64,000 nucleotides of DNA from Firmicutes bacterium UBA1702. GTDB taxonomy: Bacteria; Bacillota; Clostridia; Peptostreptococcales; Anaerovoracaceae. Below are positions 2,618 through 38,172 of this stretch, piece after piece. Where the stretch lies: NCBI GenBank assembly GCA_002320005.1, contig DCJK01000013.1, forward strand, positions 107,049-171,048. Direction: 5' to 3'. How positions within the stretch are numbered: the first letter of the stretch is position 1; each line of letters opens with the position of its first letter. The position numbers and the translations under genes were made by a program. The notes under the pieces are model-generated. The model saw only the letters and a program-made list of their open reading frames with translations. It was not told the origin of the DNA and ran no database searches.

Positions 2618-3282
2618 TTGGTTGCCTCTCCGGATTCAGAAATTTTCTCCTCTATGACGGAGCCGATATCTGTAAGAGGGAATTGCTCAAAGTATATCAT
2701 ATCAAGGCCTCTTCTGGCAATAAAATCCTTTATGCGTTCATAGTCGCTGTGGGCCTTTATATTTCCGTTGAAAATGATAGAGTTGCCCACTCTTCCGGAG
2801 GCGCCGCCTATAAAACCGTAAGGATACCCCTCAAGGACGACCTGTTTTGGCTCTACAGCAAGAACATCCATGCCTTTTGCTGCGGCTGCCCGGATAATTC
2901 CGCCATCGGCAGTTATTATGGAATTCTCGTCCACCACCACGCAGCTGCACTTGGCATAGCCCTGAGCCACATGGACAGTGATCTGATTACGAAACCGAGC
3001 TGCTTCAAGAAGTTCAGGTGCCGTTATTTTAATGTTGTGTATAAAAAACTTTCCGGTGGAACATGCATTATATATTGCATTGGCCGGATAGGAATCCCCC
3101 GGTTCTGAAGGGTCTCCGAAAAAAATACCATCACCCATATTACACATGTAAATATCAGGGTGACAAGCGATGGAGGGCTCCACGTGAGAAGCCGGATGAA
3201 CTTCACAAAGGGTATGCCCTTCTTTTATAAGATATTCTTTTAGTAATTTATCAGCTCCGGGGCTTATGTGTATTCTGCTCAT
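2614..3282 (-). CDS. hypothetical protein (possibly a DUF6873/GME-fold type); start uncertain (3282 or 3297)
   Basis: Long ORF that is first in a 4-gene minus-strand operon. A TGTATAAT extended -10 sits only about 6 nt upstream of the ATG at 3282, so the mRNA may be leaderless. Confidence 0.5.
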   Translation of the reverse strand: MSRIHISPGADKLLKEYLIKEGHTLCEVHPASHVEPSIACHPDIYMCNMGDGIFFGDPSEPGDSYPANAIYNACSTGKFFIHNIKITAPELLEAARFRNQITVHVAQGYAKCSCVVVDENSIITADGGIIRAAAAKGMDVLAVEPKQVVLEGYPYGFIGGASGRVGNSIIFNGNIKAHSDYERIKDFIARRGLDMIYFEQFPLTDIGSVIEEKISESGEATK

Positions 3283-3417
3283 AAATTTATTATACACTAA
3301 AGGAAGAGAGATTGCACATAAATATTGGAACTGCTCGTATTATGACTCCACTTAATAATCAGTGAATGACAGGCTGCAGCAATATGTGATATAATGGCAT
3401 AGAAAGGAGAAAAAAAT

Positions 3418-4086
3418 ATGATTCAAATCGGTAATGACTGGGATGCGGTGCTGAAAGAAGAAAACGGGAAAGAATACTTCATGAAGCTGCAGGAATTTCT
3501 TGCAGAAGAACGGCAGACTCATATGGTTTATCCTCCGGAGAAAGATGTTTTTAATGCACTGAAATATTCATCTCTGGCGGATACGAAAGTGGTTATTTTC
3601 GGACAGGATCCATACCATGAACCGGGGCAGGCACACGGAATGTGTTTCTCTGTAAACAAAGGCATTGCCGTGCCTCCGTCGCTGATAAATATATACAAGG
3701 AAATAGAGACGGACTTAGGCATAAAACCACCGTCTCACGGATATCTTGCAGACTGGGCCGGGCAGGGGGTGCTTCTTCTGAATACGGTTCTGACAGTTCG
3801 CAGAGGTGAAGCCAATTCCCACAGAGGAAAGGGCTGGGAAACCTTCACGGACAGAGTGACGGAAGCTCTCAATGAGCGGGAAAAACCCATGGTGTTCATC
3901 CTGTGGGGAGCCAATGCCAGAGAAAAGGCAAAGCTCATTACCAATAAAGAGCACATGATTATTACGGGAGCTCACCCAAGCCCGCTTTCTGCATGGAAGG
4001 GTTTTTTCGGAGGAAGATACTTCAGTAAAGCCAACAGATTTCTTGAAATTACGGGGCAGACCCCAATCAATTGGGAACTTAAATAA
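3418..4086 (+). CDS. ung: uracil-DNA glycosylase
   Basis: GQDPYH and HPSPLSA motifs, 222 aa, AGGAG RBS. Confidence 0.95.
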   Translation: MIQIGNDWDAVLKEENGKEYFMKLQEFLAEERQTHMVYPPEKDVFNALKYSSLADTKVVIFGQDPYHEPGQAHGMCFSVNKGIAVPPSLINIYKEIETDLGIKPPSHGYLADWAGQGVLLLNTVLTVRRGEANSHRGKGWETFTDRVTEALNEREKPMVFILWGANAREKAKLITNKEHMIITGAHPSPLSAWKGFFGGRYFSKANRFLEITGQTPINWELK

Positions 4087-4124
4087 AAGACGGCTCAGCG
4101 CCGGCAAAATAAGGAGGAAATGAA

Positions 4125-4673
4125 ATGTTAATAGCAATCGGGATTATTGTAGTTCTTATCATCATTTTCGTGGTTATGTATAATGGTTTTATACGCCTGA
4201 AAAACAACTGCGACGAGGCTTTTGCCACTATGGATGTGTATCTGAAAAAGAGATACGATCTTATTCCTAATCTGGTGGAAACTGTCAAGGGCTATGCAGC
4301 TCACGAAAAAGAAACTTTGGAAAGAGTGGTGGCAGCCAGAAACATGGCTCAGGGAGCATCAACACCGGAAGAAAAAGCTGCAGGAGAAAGCATGCTTCAG
4401 GGCACCCTTAAAAGTCTTTTTGCTGTTGCAGAAAGCTACCCGGATCTGAAGGCAAATCAGAATTTCATGGATCTGCAGGGTCAGCTTAAGGCTGTGGAAG
4501 AGGACATTGCCAACTCGCGTAAATACTATAATGCGGTAGTAAAGCAGTTCAACACCAAGTGCGAAGTGTTTCCTTCAAACCTTATAGCAGGAATTTTCCA
4601 CTTCGAAAAGAAACCTATGTTTGAGGTGGAGGCACAGGAAGAAAGACAGAATGTCAAGGTAAGTTTCTCTTAA
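4125..4673 (+). CDS. LemA family protein
   Basis: N-terminal TM helix followed by a LemA-like helical region. Paired with the DUF2207 gene downstream. Confidence 0.8.
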   Translation: MLIAIGIIVVLIIIFVVMYNGFIRLKNNCDEAFATMDVYLKKRYDLIPNLVETVKGYAAHEKETLERVVAARNMAQGASTPEEKAAGESMLQGTLKSLFAVAESYPDLKANQNFMDLQGQLKAVEEDIANSRKYYNAVVKQFNTKCEVFPSNLIAGIFHFEKKPMFEVEAQEERQNVKVSFS

Positions 4674-26685: not shown

Positions 26686-26775
26686 TTAAAATGCAAGGAA
26701 TACCACCGGTAAATCAGTCTTAAGTTTTTTGCTCATTCTTTTAGATTCATCATACATGTTCTCCATAGTAGCCAT
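26686..26775 (-). pseudogene. 5' stub (29 codons) of a DUF1232/YkvA gene, duplicate of the start of 37573..37965
   Basis: MATMENMYDESKRMSKKLKTDLPVVFLAF then stop. Homology to the full gene ends at 26690. Confidence 0.8.
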
Positions 26776-26950
26776 GGGTTGAGTATATTATAGCAGGCAG
26801 ATAATTTTTTTCAATGCGGCAACCGCCGGAAGGGAAAGTGTGTGAAGCAAATAAAAAGTCCATCGCAATTCCTTTTAAATCACGATGGACTCATGGCGGA
26901 GAGTCAGGGATTCGAACCCTGGGTCCCTTTCGGAACACAGCATTTCGAGT
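26690..26950. repeat. left copy of the 261/262-bp imperfect direct repeat bounding the island (att-like)
   Basis: Aligns base for base with 37880..38141 (offset 11190), with about a dozen differences. Contains a DUF1232 5' stub, its promoter, the tRNA terminator and the 3' half of tRNA-Ser. Confidence 0.9.
26894..26950 (-). pseudogene. truncated tRNA-Ser: 3' half only (anticodon loop to CCA)
   Basis: tggcggagagtcagggattcgaaccctgggtccctttcggaacacagcatttcgagt matches the 3' part of the intact tRNA at 38084..38172. Similarity stops at the anticodon stem-loop. Confidence 0.85.
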
Positions 26951-27208
26951 CTTTTATGCAACTGTGACGGGGATGTCCGTTTTGGGGTCGTTTCTGTAAG
27001 CCCCGTACCCGCCGAAAGCCGCTTGAAATCAGGATTTTTCGCTCGGAAAGCCTTGCGGGACGGGCTTTTTTTAAAGTGGGTTCAAATCGGCATTTTTCCC
27101 GATTTTGGAGAGAAATGCGGGAAGATAGGAGAGAAAAACCGGGAGACGGCCATACACCGCAGGATAGAGCTTCCAACCGACGAAAATCTATTTTTGAGGT
27201 GTTACAAA

Positions 27209-27780
27209 TGGATGTATTCCCCGTTAACTGGGACAGCGTTCCCGAGGTAATGAACAAGGAGCAATTCTTCCGCATCTGCCATATCAGCAAGTCCACGGCG
27301 CTGCACCTGCTCAAAAGCGGCAAGGTGCCCTGCGAGTGGACAGGCAAGAAAACCCGGTGCTATAAAATCAAAAAAGAGGATGTTCGGGCGTACCTTGAGG
27401 AACAAGCCGTTTACCCCGAGCTCTATTCCGCACCGAGGGGATGGTACGGCGGTCACTATGTTGCAAAGCTCTCAAAGGAACTGCCAGAGGATGTACTCCG
27501 GCAAATGCACGACTATTACGCCAAGCTACTCGGCAAATATAAGGATGTCGTTACCGTGCAGGAGGTTGCCGCTTTGACCGGCTACGCCAAAACCACCGTA
27601 AATAATTGGTGCAACCGTGGGGAACTTAAATCCTTCCGCAAAGGACAGCTCTTTTACATACCGAAAATTTTTCTTATAGACTTTTTCTGTTCGCTGACCT
27701 TCCGGTCCATCACCCGCAAAAGCCTGTGGCATATCCAAACGCTCAACGATTTTAGTCGGAAGATGAAGCAGAAGAAGTAA
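27209..27780 (+). CDS. DNA-binding protein with two excisionase/MerR-type HTH (HTH_17-like) domains, mobile-element type
   Basis: GAGGTG RBS. MNKEQFFRICHISKSTALHLLKSGKVP and VTVQEVAALTGYAKTTVNNWCNRGEL. The upstream part of the track ORF has no RBS. Confidence 0.65.
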
Positions 27781-27819
27781 AAGTAACCGCCTCTGCATTT
27801 TCGCAGAGGCGGTTACTTG
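27781..27819. terminator. bidirectional hairpin terminator between convergent genes
   Basis: aagtaaccgcctctgc-attttc-gcagaggcggttactt. Confidence 0.7.
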
Positions 27820-27823
27820 TCAA

Positions 27824-28003
27824 TTAGTCATCATCTTCATCATCCGACCAACCGGATATGATATGTAATTCACCGGAATCCATATCCATTGCCATATTAT
27901 CTCCCATACGCATCAGCAAATCTCCGTCAGAGTCAATTGCCATATTGTCTGAGATTGTATGTGCAAAATCTCCGCCATCATAGTCAAAAAAGTGTTTTCC
28001 CAT
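27824..28003 (-). CDS. small acidic protein (59 aa), paralog of 28788..28970; below the ORF-track cut-off
   Basis: Manual translation gives MGKHFFDYDGGDFAHTISDNMAIDSDGDLLMRMGDNMAMDMDSGELHIISGWSDDEDDD. AGGGGGA RBS. Lies 16 nt after the Zn-ribbon gene. Confidence 0.7.
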   Translation of the reverse strand: MGKHFFDYDGGDFAHTISDNMAIDSDGDLLMRMGDNMAMDMDSGELHIISGWSDDEDDD

Positions 28004-28019
28004 AAATGTTTCCCCCTAC

Positions 28020-28772
28020 TTAATCTAAATACAATTTCATTTTTTCAAATGCATTAACTGTGTCTGTATCATATGTATTAAAATCTTCTGAAAACGTTTG
28101 AAGGCTTCCGGTTGGGCTGATAACCAATTTTGTCATTTGCAAGTAATTGTCATAATAGTCCTTTAATATCGAGTAAACTTCCTCATATTGCGTTGGAGGA
28201 TTCCTCAATTTTTTCAATAAATCAGTAACATTTGATTGATTCAATTCAATTTCATAAATACTGTTCATGAAATTTTCATCAGCAAATAAATTGGATAGAG
28301 CATCATTAAAATCATCTACAAATTTACCGTTCTTCATTGTGTATTTGTCTGTCTCGGCATCTCTTACCTCATAAATTGCATTGTACCATACACTCTTGAT
28401 AAGATTTCCTGCGGTTTCTGCTTTTGCTGCACCGTCAAGCATTTTATAGGTGACGGTTTCTAAATTATCATAATAAATCATTGCGTTGCCTTTACTGATT
28501 GCAAAAGCCGTGAATACTCCGATTGCCAAAATGACAGATAGAATAATTGCGGCAACGACAACACCTTTATGTTTCTTTTTGGGGGCGTTTGTGTTATTGG
28601 GACAACCGCAAGCAGGACAGGAGCTTTCCTCTTTGCCATACAGAGCTCCGCATTCGGCACAGGTCAGAGTGTCGGGTGCGGTCGGGTTCCAGTTTTGGTT
28701 GTTACAGTGCGGGCATAGCGTTGCCTTGTCGCTGATAGGCTGTCCGCAATTTGGGCAGTGTATTAAAGGCAT
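28020..28772 (-). CDS. double zinc-ribbon protein with one TM helix and an extracytoplasmic helical domain of about 160 aa
   Basis: CPNCG..CPHC and CAECG..CPACGC, then KKKHKGVVVAAIILSVILAIGVFTAFAI. AAGGAG RBS. Confidence 0.75.
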   Translation of the reverse strand: MPLIHCPNCGQPISDKATLCPHCNNQNWNPTAPDTLTCAECGALYGKEESSCPACGCPNNTNAPKKKHKGVVVAAIILSVILAIGVFTAFAISKGNAMIYYDNLETVTYKMLDGAAKAETAGNLIKSVWYNAIYEVRDAETDKYTMKNGKFVDDFNDALSNLFADENFMNSIYEIELNQSNVTDLLKKLRNPPTQYEEVYSILKDYYDNYLQMTKLVISPTGSLQTFSEDFNTYDTDTVNAFEKMKLYLD

Positions 28773-28787
28773 ATACCGTCGCTCCTT

Positions 28788-28970
28788 TTAACCGTCATCT
28801 TCTTCGTCGGCAGACCAGGAAGAAATGAAGTGAATATCGCCGGAATCCATGTCCATAGCCATATTATCGCCCATTCGCATCATCATGTTTCCGTCCGAAT
28901 CCATTGCCATATTGTCGGACACGGAATGTACATAGTCTCCGTCGTTGTAATCAAAGAAGTGTTTACCCAT
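28788..28970 (-). CDS. small acidic protein (60 aa) with an internal DNMAxDxDxG repeat
   Basis: MGKHFFDYNDGDYVHSVSDNMAMDSDGNMMMRMGDNMAMDMDSGDIHFISSWSADEEDDG. GAGGAG RBS that overlaps the end of the HNH gene. Confidence 0.7.
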   Translation of the reverse strand: MGKHFFDYNDGDYVHSVSDNMAMDSDGNMMMRMGDNMAMDMDSGDIHFISSWSADEEDDG

Positions 28971-28981
28971 CAGTTTTCTCC

Positions 28982-29293
28982 TCAGTCTTCAATGATTTCA
29001 TATTCCACATGAGAACCTTTTACCCTCCGTGCGTGGAAAGTCGCGCCGTTTGCTTTCCAGTGCGGAAAGTGATTTGCTTTTTCAGCGTTGGTATCACGAT
29101 GGCAAATTATGATATTTTCCGGAACATCGCAACCTCCGCCTGAAAGCGGTCTGATGTGATCAAGCGTCGGGTGATATGCACTGTTCGGATTTCCGCAGGC
29201 TGATTTTTTCATCAGCCGTCCGGAGTAGTCATACGCTTCCTGACTTGCACCGAAAACACGGTTCCACACATCAACGGTTTTATACTTTGACAT
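28982..29293 (-). CDS. HNH endonuclease, minimal (103 aa)
   Basis: LDHIRPLSGGG ... NIIICHRDTNAEK (H-N-N/H beta-beta-alpha pattern). AAGGAGG RBS. Confidence 0.8.
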   Translation of the reverse strand: MSKYKTVDVWNRVFGASQEAYDYSGRLMKKSACGNPNSAYHPTLDHIRPLSGGGCDVPENIIICHRDTNAEKANHFPHWKANGATFHARRVKGSHVEYEIIED

Positions 29294-29351
29294 TTTGAGT
29301 ACCTCCTTTTTTAAGATGTACCCATATTATAATCCAAATAAGAAAAAATAA

Positions 29352-29372
29352 GAGGGTACAGCTGTACCCCCC
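29352..29372 (-). terminator. hairpin plus T-run between the ATPase and HNH genes (possible partial terminator)
   Basis: Minus strand reads gggggggtacagctgtaccctc followed by ttatttttt. A TATAAT follows before the HNH RBS. Confidence 0.45.
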
Positions 29373-29379
29373 CTGTGAA

Positions 29380-31188
29380 TCAAAGCAATTCGGAAATATC
29401 CGAATTTGTTTTGCTTGCTATTGTGATGATGGTTTCGAGCTTCGGACACCTAAATTTCTTGCTGCTTATATTTTTCCTCCACGATTCAATAGTCTCAACG
29501 CTCAGATTTAACTCATCAGCGGCTGTTTCGATTGATTTATAACAATCAATAACTGATCGATAACAACGGTTGGCGGTCGCTTCTTTATCGCCTTTCTGAT
29601 ATTTTTCCAAAATCTCCTGCAGATTAAAAATATCTCCACCGATAACCTGCTTTAAAAGGTCATTACAGTTTTCTTGTGTTACCGCTGTTCCGTGCTGTTC
29701 CATTGTGACAAAATGTACGCTGTTCCAATCATTCGGAACAAGATAGGGGCTATGCGTGGAATAAATGACTTTAATTCCGTTCGTTTGGAGTTCAAGCAGC
29801 TCCCGCATCACTTCTTTTTGAGCAATGGGGTGAAGCATGGCGGCAGGCTCGTCAACAATAAACAGATCGCCCGGACGAAGCGTATTCTTCATAAAGTAGT
29901 AGGTAAAATACCACCGTCTGCCGGCACTTGTGGAATTCAGCGCAACCGTTTCACCGAATTTTTCATGTAAAACTATTGACGGGATTTTTCCTTTTGAATG
30001 CTCAACTGAAATACTGTCATACATATCTTCCTCAAATTTAGGCAGGTTGGAATTGAGATATTCTTCGAATTCGCACAGAGCTTCATCGGTCAGCGAAAAA
30101 TCCTTCTCTGTTTTGATTTGTTTCAGCAGATCTTCCTTATCGGCTTTGTCGTAAACCTTGTTAAGATAGGTCTCAAGAATAATATACGATTTATCGTTGC
30201 GGTAGAATTCCTGACCCCTTTCGTCGCTTTTGAATATGATATCGCTGCTTTCGTTTCGTAAAAATGAGTGTTTGCCGCCGACACACTTTTGCACTTCACG
30301 AACGAATTTAAAAAATGTGCCGTTATTTTCGGGTGTTAATTGTTCGCCGGTTAATGCTTCTTTCAGACGATTTGCACGTTCGTCAATTTCATTGAGTAAT
30401 GCTATGATTCTGTCACAGGACGCTTTTGTTGCCTTGTTGATTTTTGTGATTTCCCGCTTTATCGCCGTTCCGTTTACGGTGATAAACTTTGCTTCAAACG
30501 GAGCCAAATCCGGTTTTATATAGCGGAGTTGAAAAGATAATCTTTCCGTGTCATTTAAGTTGATATAATTATAAACATATCCGAAGGATAAAGAATTATC
30601 CTCGGTATTAAAGCTTTGCGACAGCGAATTTGCAAGCCGTTCAGCCTGTTCTATAATAAATTCAACTTGAAATTTCAATTTGTCAAAATCGGTCGTTGAA
30701 TTGCGGAAATCGGCAATCTGAAAACTGCGGACAGGCACATCGGCTCTTTCGTTATATGCTATTTTGTTAAGCTGTTTTGTATATGTATTGAGAGCTTTCT
30801 TTAACTCATCTGTAAGGTCAAGAATTTCGCAAATTTCAGAATTCAAAAGCGGGACTAAATATTCCGATTCAATTCTGTCGATTTTGCAATTTTCACCAGA
30901 GCAAGCGATAAAGCGGCATTTATTCTCATCAATTTTTTTGCCGGGAAATAGTCGAGCAATGTCATGCTTTGAGAGAGTGATGTGCACTTTGTAGCTAAGC
31001 GGCAGTTTACTGCTCGCCCCGAAATAATTGCTGTTTACTTCTGCTATTGTGTCCAATGCCTCTAAAATATTGGTTTTTCCGCTTCCGTTTTTGCCGATTA
31101 ACACGGTTGGCAGATTGTCATAAAAGTTAATTTCAATCGGTTCTTTTATGGATTTGTATTTTTTAATTTCAATTCTTGTTATTTTCAT
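29380..31188 (-). CDS. ABC/SMC-type (AAA_15/AAA_21-like) ATPase with a long helical insertion and a C-terminal XRE-like HTH
   Basis: Start MKITRIEIKKYKSI. Walker A GKNGSGKT, signature-like TSAGRR, Walker B LFIVDEP, STHSPY. Tail ETAADELNLSVETIESWRK...PKLETIITIASKTNSDISELL. Confidence 0.8.
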   Translation of the reverse strand: MKITRIEIKKYKSIKEPIEINFYDNLPTVLIGKNGSGKTNILEALDTIAEVNSNYFGASSKLPLSYKVHITLSKHDIARLFPGKKIDENKCRFIACSGENCKIDRIESEYLVPLLNSEICEILDLTDELKKALNTYTKQLNKIAYNERADVPVRSFQIADFRNSTTDFDKLKFQVEFIIEQAERLANSLSQSFNTEDNSLSFGYVYNYINLNDTERLSFQLRYIKPDLAPFEAKFITVNGTAIKREITKINKATKASCDRIIALLNEIDERANRLKEALTGEQLTPENNGTFFKFVREVQKCVGGKHSFLRNESSDIIFKSDERGQEFYRNDKSYIILETYLNKVYDKADKEDLLKQIKTEKDFSLTDEALCEFEEYLNSNLPKFEEDMYDSISVEHSKGKIPSIVLHEKFGETVALNSTSAGRRWYFTYYFMKNTLRPGDLFIVDEPAAMLHPIAQKEVMRELLELQTNGIKVIYSTHSPYLVPNDWNSVHFVTMEQHGTAVTQENCNDLLKQVIGGDIFNLQEILEKYQKGDKEATANRCYRSVIDCYKSIETAADELNLSVETIESWRKNISSKKFRCPKLETIITIASKTNSDISELL

Positions 31189-31225
31189 AAGAACCCTCTC
31201 ACAATGGAAAATGTACACCGTATGT

Positions 31226-31254
31226 GTTATATCACAAAATCACACATTTTTCAA
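31226..31254 (-). promoter_or_regulatory. sigma-A type promoter of the ATPase gene
   Basis: Minus strand has TTGAAA, 17-nt spacer, TATAAC. Lies about 35 nt upstream of the ATG. Confidence 0.55.
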
Positions 31255-31390: not shown

Positions 31391-31600
31391 ATGTCACGGT
31401 TTATAGAAGAATTTTACAACGGAAATATTGATCCGCAGGCACGCAGTACAAAAGAAAATAAGGCGTTGCAAAAGCAAATGGAAGTCCTGATGAATAATAA
31501 GGATTTGCTGACCAACGCCCTGACCGACAAGCCGAAGAAATGGTTTCTCGACTATGTGAACGCTTGGGGAGTTGCCAACGGCGAATCAAATCTCGTGTAA
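31391..31600 (+). pseudogene. small mobile-element protein (DUF6809-like, from memory), 3'-truncated by the IS21 insertion
   Basis: MSRFIEEFYNGNIDPQARS.... The stop codon TAA lies inside the IS terminal inverted repeat. Confidence 0.45.
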
Positions 31601-31648: not shown

Positions 31649-32413
31649 CTAACGAGATTGATTTTGCTCTCCTGAATCCAGTAAATCGTAATAGTCTTTT
31701 GTCCTGTATGAAGGACCCACCATTTTCAGAACATGAGAATGATTGAGCAGTCGGTCAAGGATTGCATTGGCAAGCATTGAATCTGAGAATACATCGCCCC
31801 ATTTACTGAACGGTTGGTTGGTTGTGATAATTGTTGAATTATGTTCATATCGCTTCGCAATTAACTGGAACAACAGATTTGCCCCAGTCTTGTCTACTGG
31901 AAGATATCCGATTTCATCAATGATTAGAAGCTTGTATTTTGAAAAATGCTTGAGTCTGGATTCTAATCTGTTTTCATCATGAGCCTTTCTAAGAGTCTGT
32001 ATCAAATCATGACAGGTGATGAAATACGTAATGTTCCTTTTCCTTGCTGCCTCAATTCCTATTGCTGTGGCAAGGTGTGTTTTACCCGTTCCCGGAGTTC
32101 CATAAAACAATATATTTTCCTTGTTCTCAATAAATCTAAGTGTTGCAAGATCTTTGATTTCTGTTCTGCTGACTGTATTCCGGAAATGAAAATCAAATTC
32201 GTCAGCAGTTTTGATATACGGAAAATGCGATACGCTCACCTGAATCTGAGCCGCCCTTTGATTTCTAAGTGATATCTCACGCTTTGATATTTCGTATAGA
32301 GCTTCTTGCAAACTGATTCCATCCTTTGTTGCCGTTGTCAGATATTCTGAGAGATATGGTTCAACATCTGTAAAGCCAAGCTCGTCAAGATTATTCACTA
32401 ACTGTGTATACAT
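31649..32413 (-). CDS. istB: IS21-family helper ATPase IstB
   Basis: GTPGTGKTH Walker A, LLIIDEIGY Walker B, 254 aa. Confidence 0.9.
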   Translation of the reverse strand: MYTQLVNNLDELGFTDVEPYLSEYLTTATKDGISLQEALYEISKREISLRNQRAAQIQVSVSHFPYIKTADEFDFHFRNTVSRTEIKDLATLRFIENKENILFYGTPGTGKTHLATAIGIEAARKRNITYFITCHDLIQTLRKAHDENRLESRLKHFSKYKLLIIDEIGYLPVDKTGANLLFQLIAKRYEHNSTIITTNQPFSKWGDVFSDSMLANAILDRLLNHSHVLKMVGPSYRTKDYYDLLDSGEQNQSR

Positions 32414-32474
32414 ATTACAATCCTCCTGTCCATTTATCCATGCTTAGTAGATTTTCTTGTACAAATGCCATAAT

Positions 32475-33656
32475 TTATTCATCAGTTTTGTGCTTCATGG
32501 CATCACTTTTTAGAATGTCGCAAGCTGTACCTACAGTGTAACTGAACATTTTATCACTAATAACGTGACAAACTACCAGTTTACCGCTATAATATATTTC
32601 AAGATTTCCGTCATGAACATTGACGGTCATTCTTTTACCTATGTAACGTGTAGGTACAGAGTATTTTCGTCCTTCATACCGAATCATTGATTCTCTGTTA
32701 ACGAGATAAGTTTTTGAATCTTCTTGGCGGGAGATGTACTTTTCGAGAACAGAAATGTATGGAAGTGGCAGAAAATACTCTTTTTCTTTTTTGAGTTCTT
32801 CTGCTGGAATGAGTCCGGAGCCCTGAGAAACATCCTCATTGATATCATCCATGAAATTCCTACTGATGTTAACAAGGTCATTCCATGTGTCAAATTCCTC
32901 ATTGTATGCCCTTAAACGCTCCACTAACTTTGCCATTGCCTCTACTTTTCCTTTTGTTTGAGGTCTGTATGGCTGACATGCAACAGGCTTGAATCCGATA
33001 TCCTTTGCGTAGTATTCAAACTTCTGATTAAATACGGTTCTGGTAAAAGAACATCGAGACTGGTCAACTACAGTCTTCATGTTATCAAACAGAATTTCTC
33101 GTGGTACACCTCCAAAATGCTTAAATGCAGAGGTCATGCAATCAAATAGTGTTTCCTGTGATCGATCCGAGGTTATTGCAAGATACTTGTATCTGGAATA
33201 ACCCAGAACCATTAGAAAAATGTTTACGACGTAAACTTCACCTTTGCGATTAACAAGTTTCATGTCTTCTTTCCAGTCAACCTGTGCCTGAAGACCTGGA
33301 TTTGTCGCATAACGAATAGTTGCTTTCTTTGTTTCAGTAGCCTTATGCTGCCTCACAAAATCGGCAACAATGCTGTATTTGCCACTGTATCACTTACCTT
33401 GAATGAATTTGTAAACAGACATAGCCGTACACCCAAACTTGTCAACTTTATCAATGATAATCTCTTTGTAATCATCAAGCTTTGAAGTGTAAACTCGTCT
33501 GCTTGTCTTTGGAAGAATTTCGCCTTTGGAAATCTTAATATATCTGTCAATGGTTCGTGGATCACAGTCAAATCGCCGAGCTAGTTCAGTTTTATTGCAC
33601 AAATCTAGATTCTCCTTTCCTAAGAATTCAATTTTATCTTTTATGTCACCTCTCAC
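32475..33656 (-). pseudogene. istA: IS21-family transposase IstA interrupted by an in-frame TGA (33390..33392)
   Basis: The two track ORFs (33390..33656 and 32475..33356) are in the same frame (1182 nt = 394 codons). The read-through sequence ...FIQGK*YSGKYSIVADFVRQHK... is continuous IstA-like sequence. Confidence 0.8.
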
Positions 33657-34026: not shown

Positions 34027-35838
34027 CTATAATCCTTTGTAATATTTTTCAATTAAAGCAGCCATCAACTTACGACGCTCACGAAGGAAATCATCATAGG
34101 ATGACACATCCATCGTATCAATATCATCCGGAATACAGTTTTCTGAAAGGTTAGATACAAGAAGGGACTCATCCGAAATGTTACCCAATTCGATTTTCTT
34201 GGTTACACACTGTTGTTTTGCTTTGGTGAAATATGTTGCGGGCGCATCATCGCTGATTGCTTTGTTAACTTGAGTATCAAGAAAGATGTAATTTGCGACC
34301 TGATTATATTTTGTCTTATTGGTTACCCCATTGTTCTTGAGGTATGCACGTGGGAAAATGTGATGCACATCGCCGGAAATGGTAACAAGATCGGAAACCT
34401 TGGTGCCATTCATAAGCATTGAGTTGCAGTTAAGGTTGATTTGTGCCGCGATAAAGGTATTAAATGCAGGGCTGTTTACAGATGATGTTTCCAAATTTTG
34501 AGGAAGAGTTACTTTCCAGAAAGAATCAGAGAGAGAAGATGCTTCTACATCTGCAAGGAAGTTCAGGAATCCCTTCTCGGCAATGCTTCTCATATCTCTG
34601 TCCATTACTGTTTCGGGAGAACCTATGTAACGGGATGTAAGTGTGGACATAACGAACCACTTTTGAACATAACGCTTGATCTGTGCATTCGGGATGGTTG
34701 GATCATCAAGCAACATCAAATACAAAGTGTATGCAAAATCAAGCGTCATAGCCGAATTTAACAATTTGTGCGAGATAAATCCGGCGCCTTTTATTGCCAT
34801 AATAAACTGAGCAAAATTGTACTCGTTTATAAAGTTTTGAATACCCTCATCAAGTTTACGATAAGATTCGTCAACAATATCATCACGGTATTCTTTTGTT
34901 TCAAAATCTCTGCCCGAAAGTAAACTTACAAGATCTGAAAGTTTTCCTCTACGGAACTGGTGCATGAAGGAAACACGAAGCATATCGCCATAATCGGGAT
35001 CGTAAATATCATCATAATCCTTTGCGAGCCATTTGATTTTGGAAGCATATTTTGAATTTTGAAACTCTGCGTCATTTGTAATATGAGAAAAAAACTCCGG
35101 CTTAACTGCGAGATGACAGAAATAATCAACTGTCTTTCTCAGCATATTGCCGCCGTGTTCGGTATCGGCTGCCATTTTAGACATGACGAAGTCAGACTGG
35201 CTGAGTGCGGTGCCTTTGGAGTTGATACGAATGAAAATCTCTGTAACTTCATCAATATCAAGCGAATGATCAAGTTCAATCACACCAATTTGACGATTCG
35301 CAATGCCCTTCAGTTCGGTAATGGCTTTATTTACATCATTAGGTTTGACGCCCTCATTGACTGAACAGTATTTCAACGCAAAATCAAACGGATCGAAATT
35401 GCTATCGAAAACAACAGAAATGTCAGGAATCCACTTTTTATCTTTTAAATGGGATGCATCTTGAACCGCAAAACGTTTTGTTTCATCTTCAGCAAGCGGA
35501 TTAAATGCAATCTTAATTCGATCTTTGTTGAAGTCTTCATCAAGCACTTCCTTACCTGAAATTGCCGCCATCAGTGAGGTAATACGTTGTTGACCGTCTA
35601 TAAGAATCTTCTTGCCGTTGGCTTTTCCACCATCTTTAGTCTGCACATCTGGATTTTTCCAAGTAATAATGTACCCGGTGGGATAACCACTATATAATGA
35701 GTCAATTAAATCTCTAACTTGACTTCTTTTCCATACAAAGGGACGTTGTATTTCGGGGATAACAAAATCCTCGGCTTCAATTAAACCAAGTATTGCGCTT
35801 ATGGAGTATTGCATCAAAGTGAACTTTTCACCTGTCAT
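34027..35838 (-). CDS. GmrSD-family type IV (modification-dependent) restriction endonuclease, DUF262 + DUF1524
   Basis: N-terminal IPEIQRPFVW and LIDGQQRITSL (DUF262). C-terminal DVHHIFPRAYL ... NQVANYIFLDTQVNKAISD (His-Me finger, DUF1524). Confidence 0.85.
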   Translation of the reverse strand: MTGEKFTLMQYSISAILGLIEAEDFVIPEIQRPFVWKRSQVRDLIDSLYSGYPTGYIITWKNPDVQTKDGGKANGKKILIDGQQRITSLMAAISGKEVLDEDFNKDRIKIAFNPLAEDETKRFAVQDASHLKDKKWIPDISVVFDSNFDPFDFALKYCSVNEGVKPNDVNKAITELKGIANRQIGVIELDHSLDIDEVTEIFIRINSKGTALSQSDFVMSKMAADTEHGGNMLRKTVDYFCHLAVKPEFFSHITNDAEFQNSKYASKIKWLAKDYDDIYDPDYGDMLRVSFMHQFRRGKLSDLVSLLSGRDFETKEYRDDIVDESYRKLDEGIQNFINEYNFAQFIMAIKGAGFISHKLLNSAMTLDFAYTLYLMLLDDPTIPNAQIKRYVQKWFVMSTLTSRYIGSPETVMDRDMRSIAEKGFLNFLADVEASSLSDSFWKVTLPQNLETSSVNSPAFNTFIAAQINLNCNSMLMNGTKVSDLVTISGDVHHIFPRAYLKNNGVTNKTKYNQVANYIFLDTQVNKAISDDAPATYFTKAKQQCVTKKIELGNISDESLLVSNLSENCIPDDIDTMDVSSYDDFLRERRKLMAALIEKYYKGL

Positions 35839-37572: not shown

Positions 37573-37965
37573 CTAAAACCATATGGCTTTTACTGTAAGC
37601 CATATGATAATCGCCCAGACGGCAGCCACGGGCATAGCATAATACCATTTTTTCGGCTTTCCGTCTGCCCACATACCTTCTGATTTTTCACGACATTCCA
37701 TCCACACATCTTTGGGAATAAGCTTTATTGTCAGAGCCATCAGAGCCGGCAATAAAATCATATCATCAAGATATCCCAGCACCGGAATGAAATCCGGAAT
37801 CAGGTCAACAGACGACAGGGCATAGCATACCGTGACAGCAGCTGTCACCTTTGCCGGGACAGATGCACTGCCGTGCTTCAATGCAAGGAATACCACCGGT
37901 AAATCAGTCTTAAGTTTTTTGCTCATTCTTTTAGATTCATCATACATGTTCTCCATAGTAGCCAT
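37573..37965 (-). CDS. DUF1232 (YkvA family) membrane protein
   Basis: DLIPDFIPVLGYLDD signature. Own promoter (TGCTATAAT 11 nt before the ATG, no SD) and own terminator (about 37478..37512). Confidence 0.8.
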   Translation of the reverse strand: MATMENMYDESKRMSKKLKTDLPVVFLALKHGSASVPAKVTAAVTVCYALSSVDLIPDFIPVLGYLDDMILLPALMALTIKLIPKDVWMECREKSEGMWADGKPKKWYYAMPVAAVWAIIIWLTVKAIWF

Positions 37966-38141
37966 GGGCTGAGTATATTATAGCAGGCAGATAATTTTTT
38001 TCAATGCGGCAACCGCCGGAAGGGAAAGTGCAGGACGCACATAAAAAGTCCACCGCAATTCCTTTTAAATCACGATGGACTCATGGCGGAGAGTTAGGGA
38101 TTCGAACCCTAGGTTCCTTTTGGGAACACAGCATTTCGAGT
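37880..38141. repeat. right copy of the 261/262-bp direct repeat (embedded in the intact DUF1232 gene start, intergenic region and intact tRNA-Ser)
   Basis: See 26690..26950. Confidence 0.9.
37977..38004 (-). promoter_or_regulatory. promoter of the DUF1232 gene (extended -10), near-leaderless
   Basis: Minus strand has TTGAAA, 16-nt spacer, (TGC)TATAAT. The ATG starts 12 nt after the -10. Confidence 0.5.
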
Positions 38142-38172
38142 GCTGCACCTTCGACCTCTCGGACAACTCTCC
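38084..38172 (-). tRNA. tRNA-Ser (anticodon CGA), CCA encoded
   Basis: Reverse complement is GGAGAGTTGTCCGAGAGGTCGAAGGTGCAGCACTCGAAATGCTGTGTTCCCAAAAGGAACCTAGGGTTCGAATCCCTAACTCTCCGCCA. It has a 7-bp acceptor stem, anticodon loop CTCGAAA, a long variable arm and a GTTCGAATC T-loop. Confidence 0.92.

Follow-up and report, generated by a model that had tools for sequence, protein, structure and literature searches.

The subject of this study is a group of five minus-strand genes at positions 27,824 to 31,254 of a 64,000-nucleotide (nt) stretch of DNA from Firmicutes bacterium UBA1702 (contig DCJK01000013.1, positions 107,049 to 171,048); the whole stretch is called the window below. Along the minus strand the genes encode an ABC-type ATPase with a helix-turn-helix (HTH) tail, a small HNH nuclease, an acidic mini-protein (acidic-1), a double zinc-ribbon protein with a single transmembrane (TM) segment (ZnR) and a second acidic mini-protein (acidic-2). 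An earlier reading of the sequence, referred to here as the original prediction, took them for one undescribed five-component defence system bracketed by the acidic proteins. Based on our comparison with related loci, which were collected by way of the ATPase, the HNH and the acidic protein, the locus is made of two stacked cassettes, the HTH-tailed ATPase with HNH-acidic-1 and ZnR with acidic-2, and is not one machine. For the first cassette we propose an ATPase-gated mini-HNH nuclease that would act in defence or addiction, in which the HTH controls the HNH promoter or docks the nuclease and the small protein serves as a negative modulator, a proposal to which we give an even chance.

The gaps between the genes, from the ATPase to acidic-2, are 86, 11, 15 and 16 nt, each gene is preceded by a GGAGG-like Shine-Dalgarno sequence (SD), and the terminator scan places a strong intrinsic terminator with a 17-bp stem (27781..27818, minus strand) at the end of the operon, after acidic-2. 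The open reading frames, motifs, SDs and spacings listed in the original prediction, as well as its hairpin and TATAAT, are all present as described. Homologues number more than 1000 for the ATPase, 548 for the mini-HNH and 767 for the acidic protein, and the acidic gene is under strong purifying selection (median ratio of nonsynonymous to synonymous substitution rates, dN/dS, of 0.06 over 628 pairs); given these numbers, the five genes are not chance reading frames. No RNA family was found in the locus with Rfam.

The two acidic genes, acidic-1 (28788..28970, minus strand; 60 amino acids (aa), net charge -13) and acidic-2 (27824..28003, minus strand; 59 aa, net charge -15), form a 184-nt direct repeat of 76% nucleotide identity and their products are 73% identical, so that they are paralogues, as had been claimed. 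Between them lies the ZnR gene (28020..28772, minus strand; 250 aa), an accessory gene or a separate cassette, whose product matches the Pfam families DZR (3e-6) and Zn_Ribbon_1 (5e-6) as well as phrog_4852 (8e-18); a sequence search of the PDB gave nothing meaningful for it. In related loci ZnR follows the HNH-acidic pair in some (L003/4, L011, L021, L092/93 and L135, 63-72% identity) and is absent after it in others (L001/2, L005-10 and L012), and ZnR-acidic pairs are found with neither HNH nor ATPase (L107, L117, L119 and L123). Acidic-2-type copies are 95-100% identical though the gene upstream of them varies, being either a 113/121-aa HNH paralogue or ZnR, and in the majority of these loci the mobile element's convergent HTH_17 gene comes next. 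ZnR-acidic-2 is an independent unit, which probably came to lie beside the first cassette through recombination at the acidic gene. It is very improbable that all five genes constitute one obligate multi-component defence system. They are tightly packed and co-directional and their exact layout does recur, in L070-72, L084, L086, L088, L173 and L174, but among the sampled loci the second acidic gene occurs in the full layout only in these contigs, which are near-identical copies of one element (97-99% aa identity) and are thus no evidence of conservation between independent lineages; in relatives of greater divergence one or both of ZnR and the second acidic gene are missing, and the ZnR-acidic and HNH-acidic pairs occur independently. 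The claim of a single bracketed system is thus abandoned. If our reading holds, it is a caution for genome scans that tightly packed co-directional genes of an island may be stacked cassettes, not one system.

The HTH-tailed ATPase and the mini-HNH nuclease

The ATPase gene (29380..31188, minus strand) encodes 602 aa when read from its ATG, and an alternative GTG start lies at 31218. Its product belongs to the ABC ATPases of the OLD/SMC type (AAA_15, 2e-28; AAA_21, 1.4e-19), and the Walker A motif GKNGSGKT, the signature TSAGRR, the Walker B motif LFIVDEP and the H-loop STHSPY are invariant over 43 homologues, in agreement with the ABC/SMC-type assignment made from the motifs by eye. Sequence matches in the PDB are weak and include AriA, OLD, Rad50 and PtuA. 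The AlphaFold2 (AF2) model is of moderate quality, with a predicted local distance difference test score (pLDDT) of 70 and a predicted template modelling score (pTM) of 0.49, and Foldseek searches with it returned SMC heads, PtuA and AriA at template modelling scores of 0.2-0.3, a class-level likeness by which PtuA-like, AriA-like and SMC-like ATPases are not separable.

The last ~65 aa of the ATPase (approximately residues 535-602, nt 29383-29586, minus strand) form a C-terminal XRE-type HTH, the helices of which are modelled with a pLDDT of 81-92. The tail alone scores marginally against HTH_3, and BLASTP of the free XRE protein of locus L022 against it gave no match; it is in profile-profile comparison alone that the homology is seen, the profile of the ATPase tails aligning with that of free XRE proteins at an hhalign probability of 97.5% (E 8e-12), by which the tail suggested earlier is genuine. 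The free XRE proteins (66-72 aa) are each encoded after another large gene, either a DUF4238 gene (393 aa) or genes for uncharacterized proteins of 450 aa and 372 aa, and in L022 a 721-aa OLD-type ATPase-Toprim (OLD-like_TOPRIM, 1.4e-5) is followed by a separate XRE gene (HTH_19, 1.6e-9), the HNH gene and a small gene of the type that we call C. All sampled 103-aa HNH genes have either an HTH-tailed ATPase or a free XRE HTH 76-95 nt upstream, and we therefore regard the XRE HTH, the spacer and the mini-HNH as an invariant unit. Judged from these alignments, the window ATPase is one to whose C-terminus an HTH, elsewhere a free gene, has been fused.

The mini-HNH gene (28982..29293, minus strand) encodes a beta-beta-alpha-Me nuclease of 103 aa (HNH_4, 3.8e-5), and nearly all of the homologues are exactly this long. 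Residues H46, N60, H65 and N69 are invariant among 35 homologues. The best PDB match of the mini-HNH profile is the HNH domain of AceCas9 (8d2k, E 0.003), and no PtuB chain was found among its PDB matches at E<=10. The AF2 model built from the 35-sequence alignment is poor (pLDDT 56) and shows the C-terminus as beta strands, not helices.

The ATPase gene is followed by the HNH gene, with a spacer of 76-91 nt, in at least 12 distinct flanking contexts, and the two genes stay neighbours as the identity of the ATPase falls from 97% to 29%, so that the ATPase-nuclease gene logic recognized in the original prediction is a conserved one. The nuclease is much more conserved than its partner (56-89% versus 29-83% identity), and it keeps its 56-89% identity while the ATPase drifts to 29-46%. 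Triads of ATPase, HNH and acidic genes occur in non-mobile contexts as well (L001/L002). Such conservation bears on the thought that the mini-HNH is a selfish, homing-type or phage-packaging-type endonuclease with its neighbours as coincidental cargo. HNH proteins of ~100 aa are common in phages, PHROG HNH profiles match the mini-HNH at 1e-6 and the setting is that of a mobile element, but there is no terminase, intron or intein context, the linkage to an XRE HTH is invariant, the linkage to the ATPase recurs over deep divergence, and what is found in phage-borne loci is the small proteins and no HNH; we find this explanation most improbable.

The spacer between the ATPase and HNH genes

Immediately behind the stop codon of the ATPase the terminator scan detected a hairpin with a 10-bp stem, the palindrome GGGTACAGCTGTACCC, followed by a T-run (29350..29373, minus strand), which could be a terminator, an operator for the HTH, or both. 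No second copy of GGGTACAGCTGTACCC is found in the window, including the region upstream of the ATPase. The hairpin folds with z -3.4 to -7.2 and is kept across clades, with compensatory stem changes, GGGTAC/GTACCC versus GTGGAC/GTCCAC, that track the HTH clade; the palindrome reads GGGTACAGCTGTACCC in the clade of the window and GTGGACAGCTGTCCAC in the 42-46% clade, with variable central bases. Symmetric covariation of this kind would be expected either of an RNA hairpin or of an operator co-evolving with a dimeric HTH. The T-run follows the hairpin in most versions and is missing in the L005 clade. Loci with a free XRE gene carry a terminator, then a different palindrome, GAACCnnnnGGTTC, and then a promoter. 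A possible third half-site after the -10 hexamer, GGGTACA, was rejected, since in other clades its sequence does not change in step with that of the palindrome.

Downstream of the hairpin the hexamer TATAAT (29326..29331, minus strand), read from the sequence, is the -10-like element of a promoter for the HNH and acidic genes. A consensus promoter scan did not call it, owing to its poor -35 region. The TATAAT and its SD context are conserved in ATPase-linked loci, and HNH loci devoid of the ATPase carry the -10-like variants TATAGA, TATAAA or TATAAT upstream, together with the same SD. As a -10-like hexamer and the SD are kept with and without the ATPase, the HNH gene and the small gene behind it constitute a transcription unit of their own, which bears out the caveat, raised with the original prediction, that there could be two units. 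In addition, the predicted fold of the 5' untranslated region (5'UTR) pairs the SD of the HNH gene in 4 of the 4 clades tested (z -3.4 to -7.2; 29294-29340 on the minus strand of the window and its equivalents in L005, L018 and L019), and this hairpin may damp translation of the nuclease.

The fused HTH would most likely bind the intergenic palindrome and set the transcription of the separately promoted HNH/small-protein unit; alternatively, the HTH tail could be a helix bundle on which the nuclease docks.

An XRE HTH upstream of every sampled 103-aa HNH, an HNH/small-gene pair with its own promoter and a 5'UTR hairpin that sequesters the HNH SD are also what could be expected of a toxin-antitoxin (TA) or addiction module serving the mobile element, with the mini-HNH as toxin, the small protein or the XRE HTH as antitoxin, the HTH as autorepressor and the ATPase as an optional part. 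In line with such a module, HNH-acidic pairs without the ATPase (L074-79, L109-163) are found by themselves at the termini of serine-recombinase and tyrosine-integrase elements, at many insertion sites. The order and spacing of the genes would also be compatible with a toxic protein that an adjacent, co-expressed protein neutralizes. We nevertheless judge such a module unlikely. A small protein encoded behind the nuclease and a terminator between HTH and HNH are atypical of type II TA, L169-172 have no third gene, and a sensor-effector logic is suggested by the conserved partnership with a large protein, be it an ATPase or another. TA function and abortive-infection defence are not mutually exclusive.

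The third slot and the acidic mini-protein family

The position behind the mini-HNH is occupied by different small genes. The acidic type, designated A, follows the HNH gene in every locus that has an ATPase of 65% identity or more and a contig reaching past the HNH gene, and also in L164. A helical protein of 54-80 aa, type B, takes the third slot in L014, L018, L019 and L165-168, and an NPNN-repeat protein, type C, of 59-61 aa in this position, does so in L016 and L022. Types A and C both begin with MGK/MSK, contain two internal repeats and end in a Trp-Ser-acidic tail. In L164 (6370-6564), on a 3.3-Mb contig, the acidic homologue stands behind an intact ATPase-HNH pair and its C-terminus switches from the acidic tail to GAFISSHHGTTTRTIKEKIA; this copy looks frameshifted or decayed.

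The acidic protein is built of a Met/Asp-rich unit of 16 aa, DNMAMDSDGxxxMRMG, of which one homologue has three copies. Neither acidic-1 nor acidic-2 matched any Pfam family, and no match to the acidic protein was found in PHROG or the PDB. A profile search of 1.84 billion representatives returned 439 clusters at 50% identity, all of 44-104 aa, and no fusion was seen among the 150 matches listed.

In the loci that we fetched there are 108 copies of the acidic gene, 100 of which have an identifiable upstream open reading frame; the sample is biased to close relatives and partly redundant. In 63/100 the upstream gene is the mini-HNH, either of 103 aa or in the form of a 113/121-aa paralogue in which the catalytic residues are retained, and the acidic gene starts 11-16 nt after it. 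The remaining partners are the 250-aa ZnR-TM protein (13/100), a 391-aa protein with RNase III and a double-stranded RNA-binding domain (dsRBD) at a gap of 1 nt (8/100), a type C protein (5-7/100), a 229-251-aa protein that we read as nucleotidyltransferase (NTase)-like and that has no profile match (4/100), and another ZnR-TM protein (3/100). Almost always, 1-21 nt separate the acidic gene from the one before it. With regard to the original prediction, the acidic gene mostly follows the mini-HNH, ZnR accompanies the ATPase/HNH pair in some lineages, and acidic-2 is not independently conserved.

Two of the less frequent arrangements are described here in their own right. The RNase III-dsRBD protein, with an N-terminal extension, precedes the acidic gene in L094 and L097-L103 (for example L097, 3824-5177). 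The NTase-like protein precedes it in L083 (3875-4758) and L095 (4283-5183), carries a minimal nucleotidyltransferase-looking motif (GS...DFD) and has no Pfam or PADLOC match; the pair in L083 adjoins phage lysis genes and a serine recombinase.

We suggest that the 60-aa acidic repeat protein is most likely a stoichiometric inhibitor or a nucleic-acid mimic that would keep the nuclease quiet, as multicopy single-stranded DNA (msDNA) does for the PtuAB of a retron. This role is inferred from where the gene lies and how tightly it is spaced, from the HNH being its dominant partner, from types A, B and C taking one another's place in the slot, and from the nuclease-free pairs of A and C in prophages. 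A different explanation is that the acidic protein is functionally unrelated to the genes upstream of it and belongs to the backbone of integrative elements and prophages, where it could be, for instance, a DNA mimic directed against restriction or defence; it would serve in addition as a handle for homologous recombination, by which various cargo cassettes come to lie next to it. The near identity of acidic-2-type copies behind varying genes and mostly before HTH_17, the diversity of the partners (HNH, RNase III, NTase-like, ZnR-TM), the presence of the acidic gene in prophages devoid of nucleases, the net charge of -13 to -15 over 60 aa and the two copies that bracket one cassette in the window all speak for it. 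Against this, the tight and fixed spacing in nearly all copies suggests translational coupling, the mini-HNH is the dominant partner, the acidic gene is retained in the triads of L001/L002 that lie outside mobile contexts, and other small proteins take the same slot behind the same HNH. We hold such a backbone role to be rather unlikely.

Tandems of type C (73-93 aa) and type A (58 aa) without a nuclease are found in prophages and elements (L080 5762-6177, L082 4702-5177, L104, L137, L142 and L146). In prophages they stand as morons between tail and head genes, in L080 on the opposite strand, with the tape-measure gene to one side and the head-tail genes to the other, and they occur in an IMG/VR contig as well. 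The nuclease-less tandems of prophages are possibly counter-defence copies of inhibitors. Carried further, the small proteins of types A, B and C could represent a hitherto unseen class of exchangeable 'safety catches' of defence nucleases, perhaps nucleic-acid mimics with the part in OLD-ABC/HNH modules that msDNA has in retron-Septu, the prophage tandems could be counter-defence, and XRE HTH, mini-HNH and small protein could together be a plug-in effector captured by different sensors, by the OLD-ABC ATPase through fusion and otherwise by OLD-Toprim, DUF4238 and the 372-/450-aa proteins. We offer this wider scheme as a speculation of low probability. If our main proposal holds, the 439 unannotated clusters of the acidic family are candidate inhibitors or anti-defence factors, of use as tools and in studies of how phages and their hosts contend in the human gut.

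Relation to known systems and the integrative element

OLD-ABC ATPases paired with HNH, restriction endonuclease or PIN nucleases are a recognized class (PMC12839542, PMC12137116), in which the pairing with HNH is explicitly noted (PMC12839542). The locus resembles the OLD-ABC and nuclease dyads described by Aravind and colleagues (PARIS AriA/AriB, Gabija GajA, WonAB, PD-T4-4) in having an AAA_15/AAA_21 ATPase with intact motifs and a conserved linkage, via a fused or a free XRE HTH, to a stand-alone nuclease; moreover, the ATPase-Toprim of L022 is a bona fide OLD protein linked to the same HNH family. It differs in that the window ATPase has no Toprim domain and its matches to named systems are generic or partial. 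The PADLOC matches of the ATPase are of this sort only, to the AAA_15-derived AriA model and to AbiLi, Old (2.8e-19), GajA and PtuA. The mini-HNH had no match in PADLOC, and no PtuB at E<=0.1.

Septu is the tested example of the class. There, PtuB consists of an HNH domain, compared with that of AceCas9, and a helical C-terminal domain that is gripped by the C-terminal extensions of PtuA, and msDNA sequesters PtuAB (PMC12819146). Septu, PARIS and Menshen have in common that an ABC ATPase dimer grips the effector by a C-terminal domain (PMC12065111). The likeness of the window locus to Septu lies in the SMC/OLD-type ABC ATPase encoded directly before a Cas9-like (HNH_4) HNH gene, in the conservation of this adjacency and in the helical C-terminal extension of the ATPase; the anionic third component could parallel the sequestration of PtuAB by msDNA in type I-A retrons (Ec78/Eco7). 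The window locus is unlike Septu in that the C-terminus of its ATPase is an XRE HTH, in the conserved hairpin and promoter between its two genes and in the variable small-protein gene after the nuclease. The ATPase/HNH pair is a variant of the OLD-ABC ATPase and HNH dyad class and is not Septu proper. By analogy with Septu, PARIS and Menshen, a dimer of the ABC ATPase would hold or regulate the small HNH and, upon sensing infection, release or activate it.

Menshen itself (NsnABC), an operon of a DUF262/ParB NsnA, an NsnB ATPase with DUF3696 and an NsnC effector, was considered and rejected, the NsnB match being partial (3.5e-14, residues 415-484). Likewise, a Menshen-like link to GmrSD was rejected, since the DUF262 protein is a full GmrSD and is parted from the locus by IS21 and DUF6809 in the window and by five genes in L019.

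The regulatory part of the unit calls to mind type II TA and C-protein-regulated nuclease operons, in which an XRE HTH immediately precedes a nuclease that may be toxic and a palindrome separates the two; a small co-translated partner and a mobile-element setting are further points in common. Unlike these operons, the HTH here is fused to a 540-aa ATPase or encoded after large unrelated proteins, a terminator lies between HTH and nuclease, there is no methyltransferase, and the putative inhibitor is encoded downstream of the nuclease and is not universal. The acidic proteins resemble DNA mimics (Ocr, ArdA, Arn, phi29 p56, Ugi) and the immunity proteins of colicin DNases in their size and charge (57-60 aa, -13 to -15), in their residence on mobile elements and prophages and in adjoining an HNH nuclease; they differ from them in having no sequence similarity and in being built of 16-aa repeats.

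Several observations weigh against an ATPase-gated nuclease held in check by a small protein. No system model of PADLOC or NCBIfam fits the locus. The PADLOC PtuA match of the window ATPase amounts to 54.5 bits over the N-terminal 67 residues alone, compared with 146 bits for the genuine PtuA-like ATPase of L150, and the NCBIfam PtuA model NF041760 gives 43 bits against a cut-off of 500. The 103-aa mini-HNH is devoid of the helical C-terminal docking domain of PtuB. One relative of the ATPase, in L017, has no HNH gene in the 560 nt left downstream of it on the contig, and the terminator-like hairpin together with the HNH/small-gene pairs that lack the ATPase suggests that the ATPase may be dispensable or loosely coupled. 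L169-172 are without the third gene, which is therefore no obligatory antitoxin. Finally, the acidic gene also follows genes for RNase III-like, NTase-like and membrane proteins, which fits poorly with a specific HNH inhibitor, and such partners, together with the loci lacking a third gene, weaken the inhibitor role.

The same PADLOC and NCBIfam results agree with the original prediction that the locus is not a catalogued system. Its claim of an undescribed system stands in part: the literature that we searched contains no description of the HTH/mini-HNH/small-protein module or of the acidic family, whereas dyads of OLD-ABC ATPase and HNH had been recognized before. If our proposal is correct, gut Clostridia attach a portable effector unit, composed of an XRE HTH, an operator/promoter, a 103-aa HNH and a small modulator, to several large 'sensors', the OLD-ABC/Septu theme extends past the catalogued systems, and current defence-finder models have gaps.

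The five genes occupy the cargo bay of an integrative element at tRNA-Ser that has decayed. A direct repeat of 95% identity and ~260 nt (26690-26950 and 37880-38141), made up of the 3' part of the tRNA-Ser(cga) gene (38084..38172) and ~200 nt downstream of it, bounds an 11-kb island that contains the locus, confirming the tRNA-Ser island of the original prediction. A direct repeat of this length is much longer than a usual att site. One edge of the bay is the plus-strand HTH_17 gene that converges on acidic-2 (27076..27780; HTH_17, 7.7e-18) and belongs to the integrative-element backbone; the other is a truncated plus-strand DUF6809 gene (31391..31594; DUF6809, 6e-11), cut by the insertion of IS21, which corresponds to residues 1-68 of the 99-aa protein of L070. 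The IS21 copy (31649..33656) is itself broken, with an intact istB (IstB, 1.6e-74) and an istA (rve, 3e-15) split into reading frames of 293 aa and 88 aa; the sister contig L173 (5765-7772) has an intact IstA of 408 aa. DUF6548 and two HTH_17 genes are also found in the island.

In relatives of the element (L005, L070 and L150) a tyrosine integrase gene comes after the HTH_17 gene, and TnpV and DUF6809 lie on the opposite side of the cargo. An integrase match was found nowhere in the window, from which TnpV has been lost too. The island with an identical ATPase is present in five metagenome contigs, and the relatives that carry names are uncultured gut Clostridia, Eubacteriales and Ruminococcaceae.

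The defence-island context that had been assigned to the locus is upheld by the GmrSD gene (34027..35838; GmrSD_N, 9e-36). The Fic remnant beside it was detected in the window neither by Pfam nor by tblastn with three Fic proteins of related loci, and the synteny with the sister copy L173, where an intact 200-aa Fic gene adjoins GmrSD at this very position, is all that speaks for it. In L019 a GmrSD gene of 88% identity (2755-4566) lies a few kb upstream of an ATPase-HNH cassette with a 46%-identical ATPase, and from this arrangement it appears that GmrSD and the ATPase-HNH cassette travel together even though one of them diverges deeply.

Two further neighbourhoods are of interest. In L169-L172 (for example L169, 6502-12071) the free XRE-HNH pair has no small third gene behind it. 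Directly downstream come an XRE/Peptidase_M78 pair, a SIR2_2 protein of 927 aa and a helicase of the Schlafen-like kind, so that the whole is a dense defence island. In L150 (648-3589) the gene after that of the PtuA-like ATPase (PADLOC PtuA, 3.8e-43) encodes a 359-aa protein whose OGG-like match is weak; this different ATPase-led two-gene cassette is carried by the same element, just upstream of TnpV and a pair of the 121-aa HNH and acidic genes.

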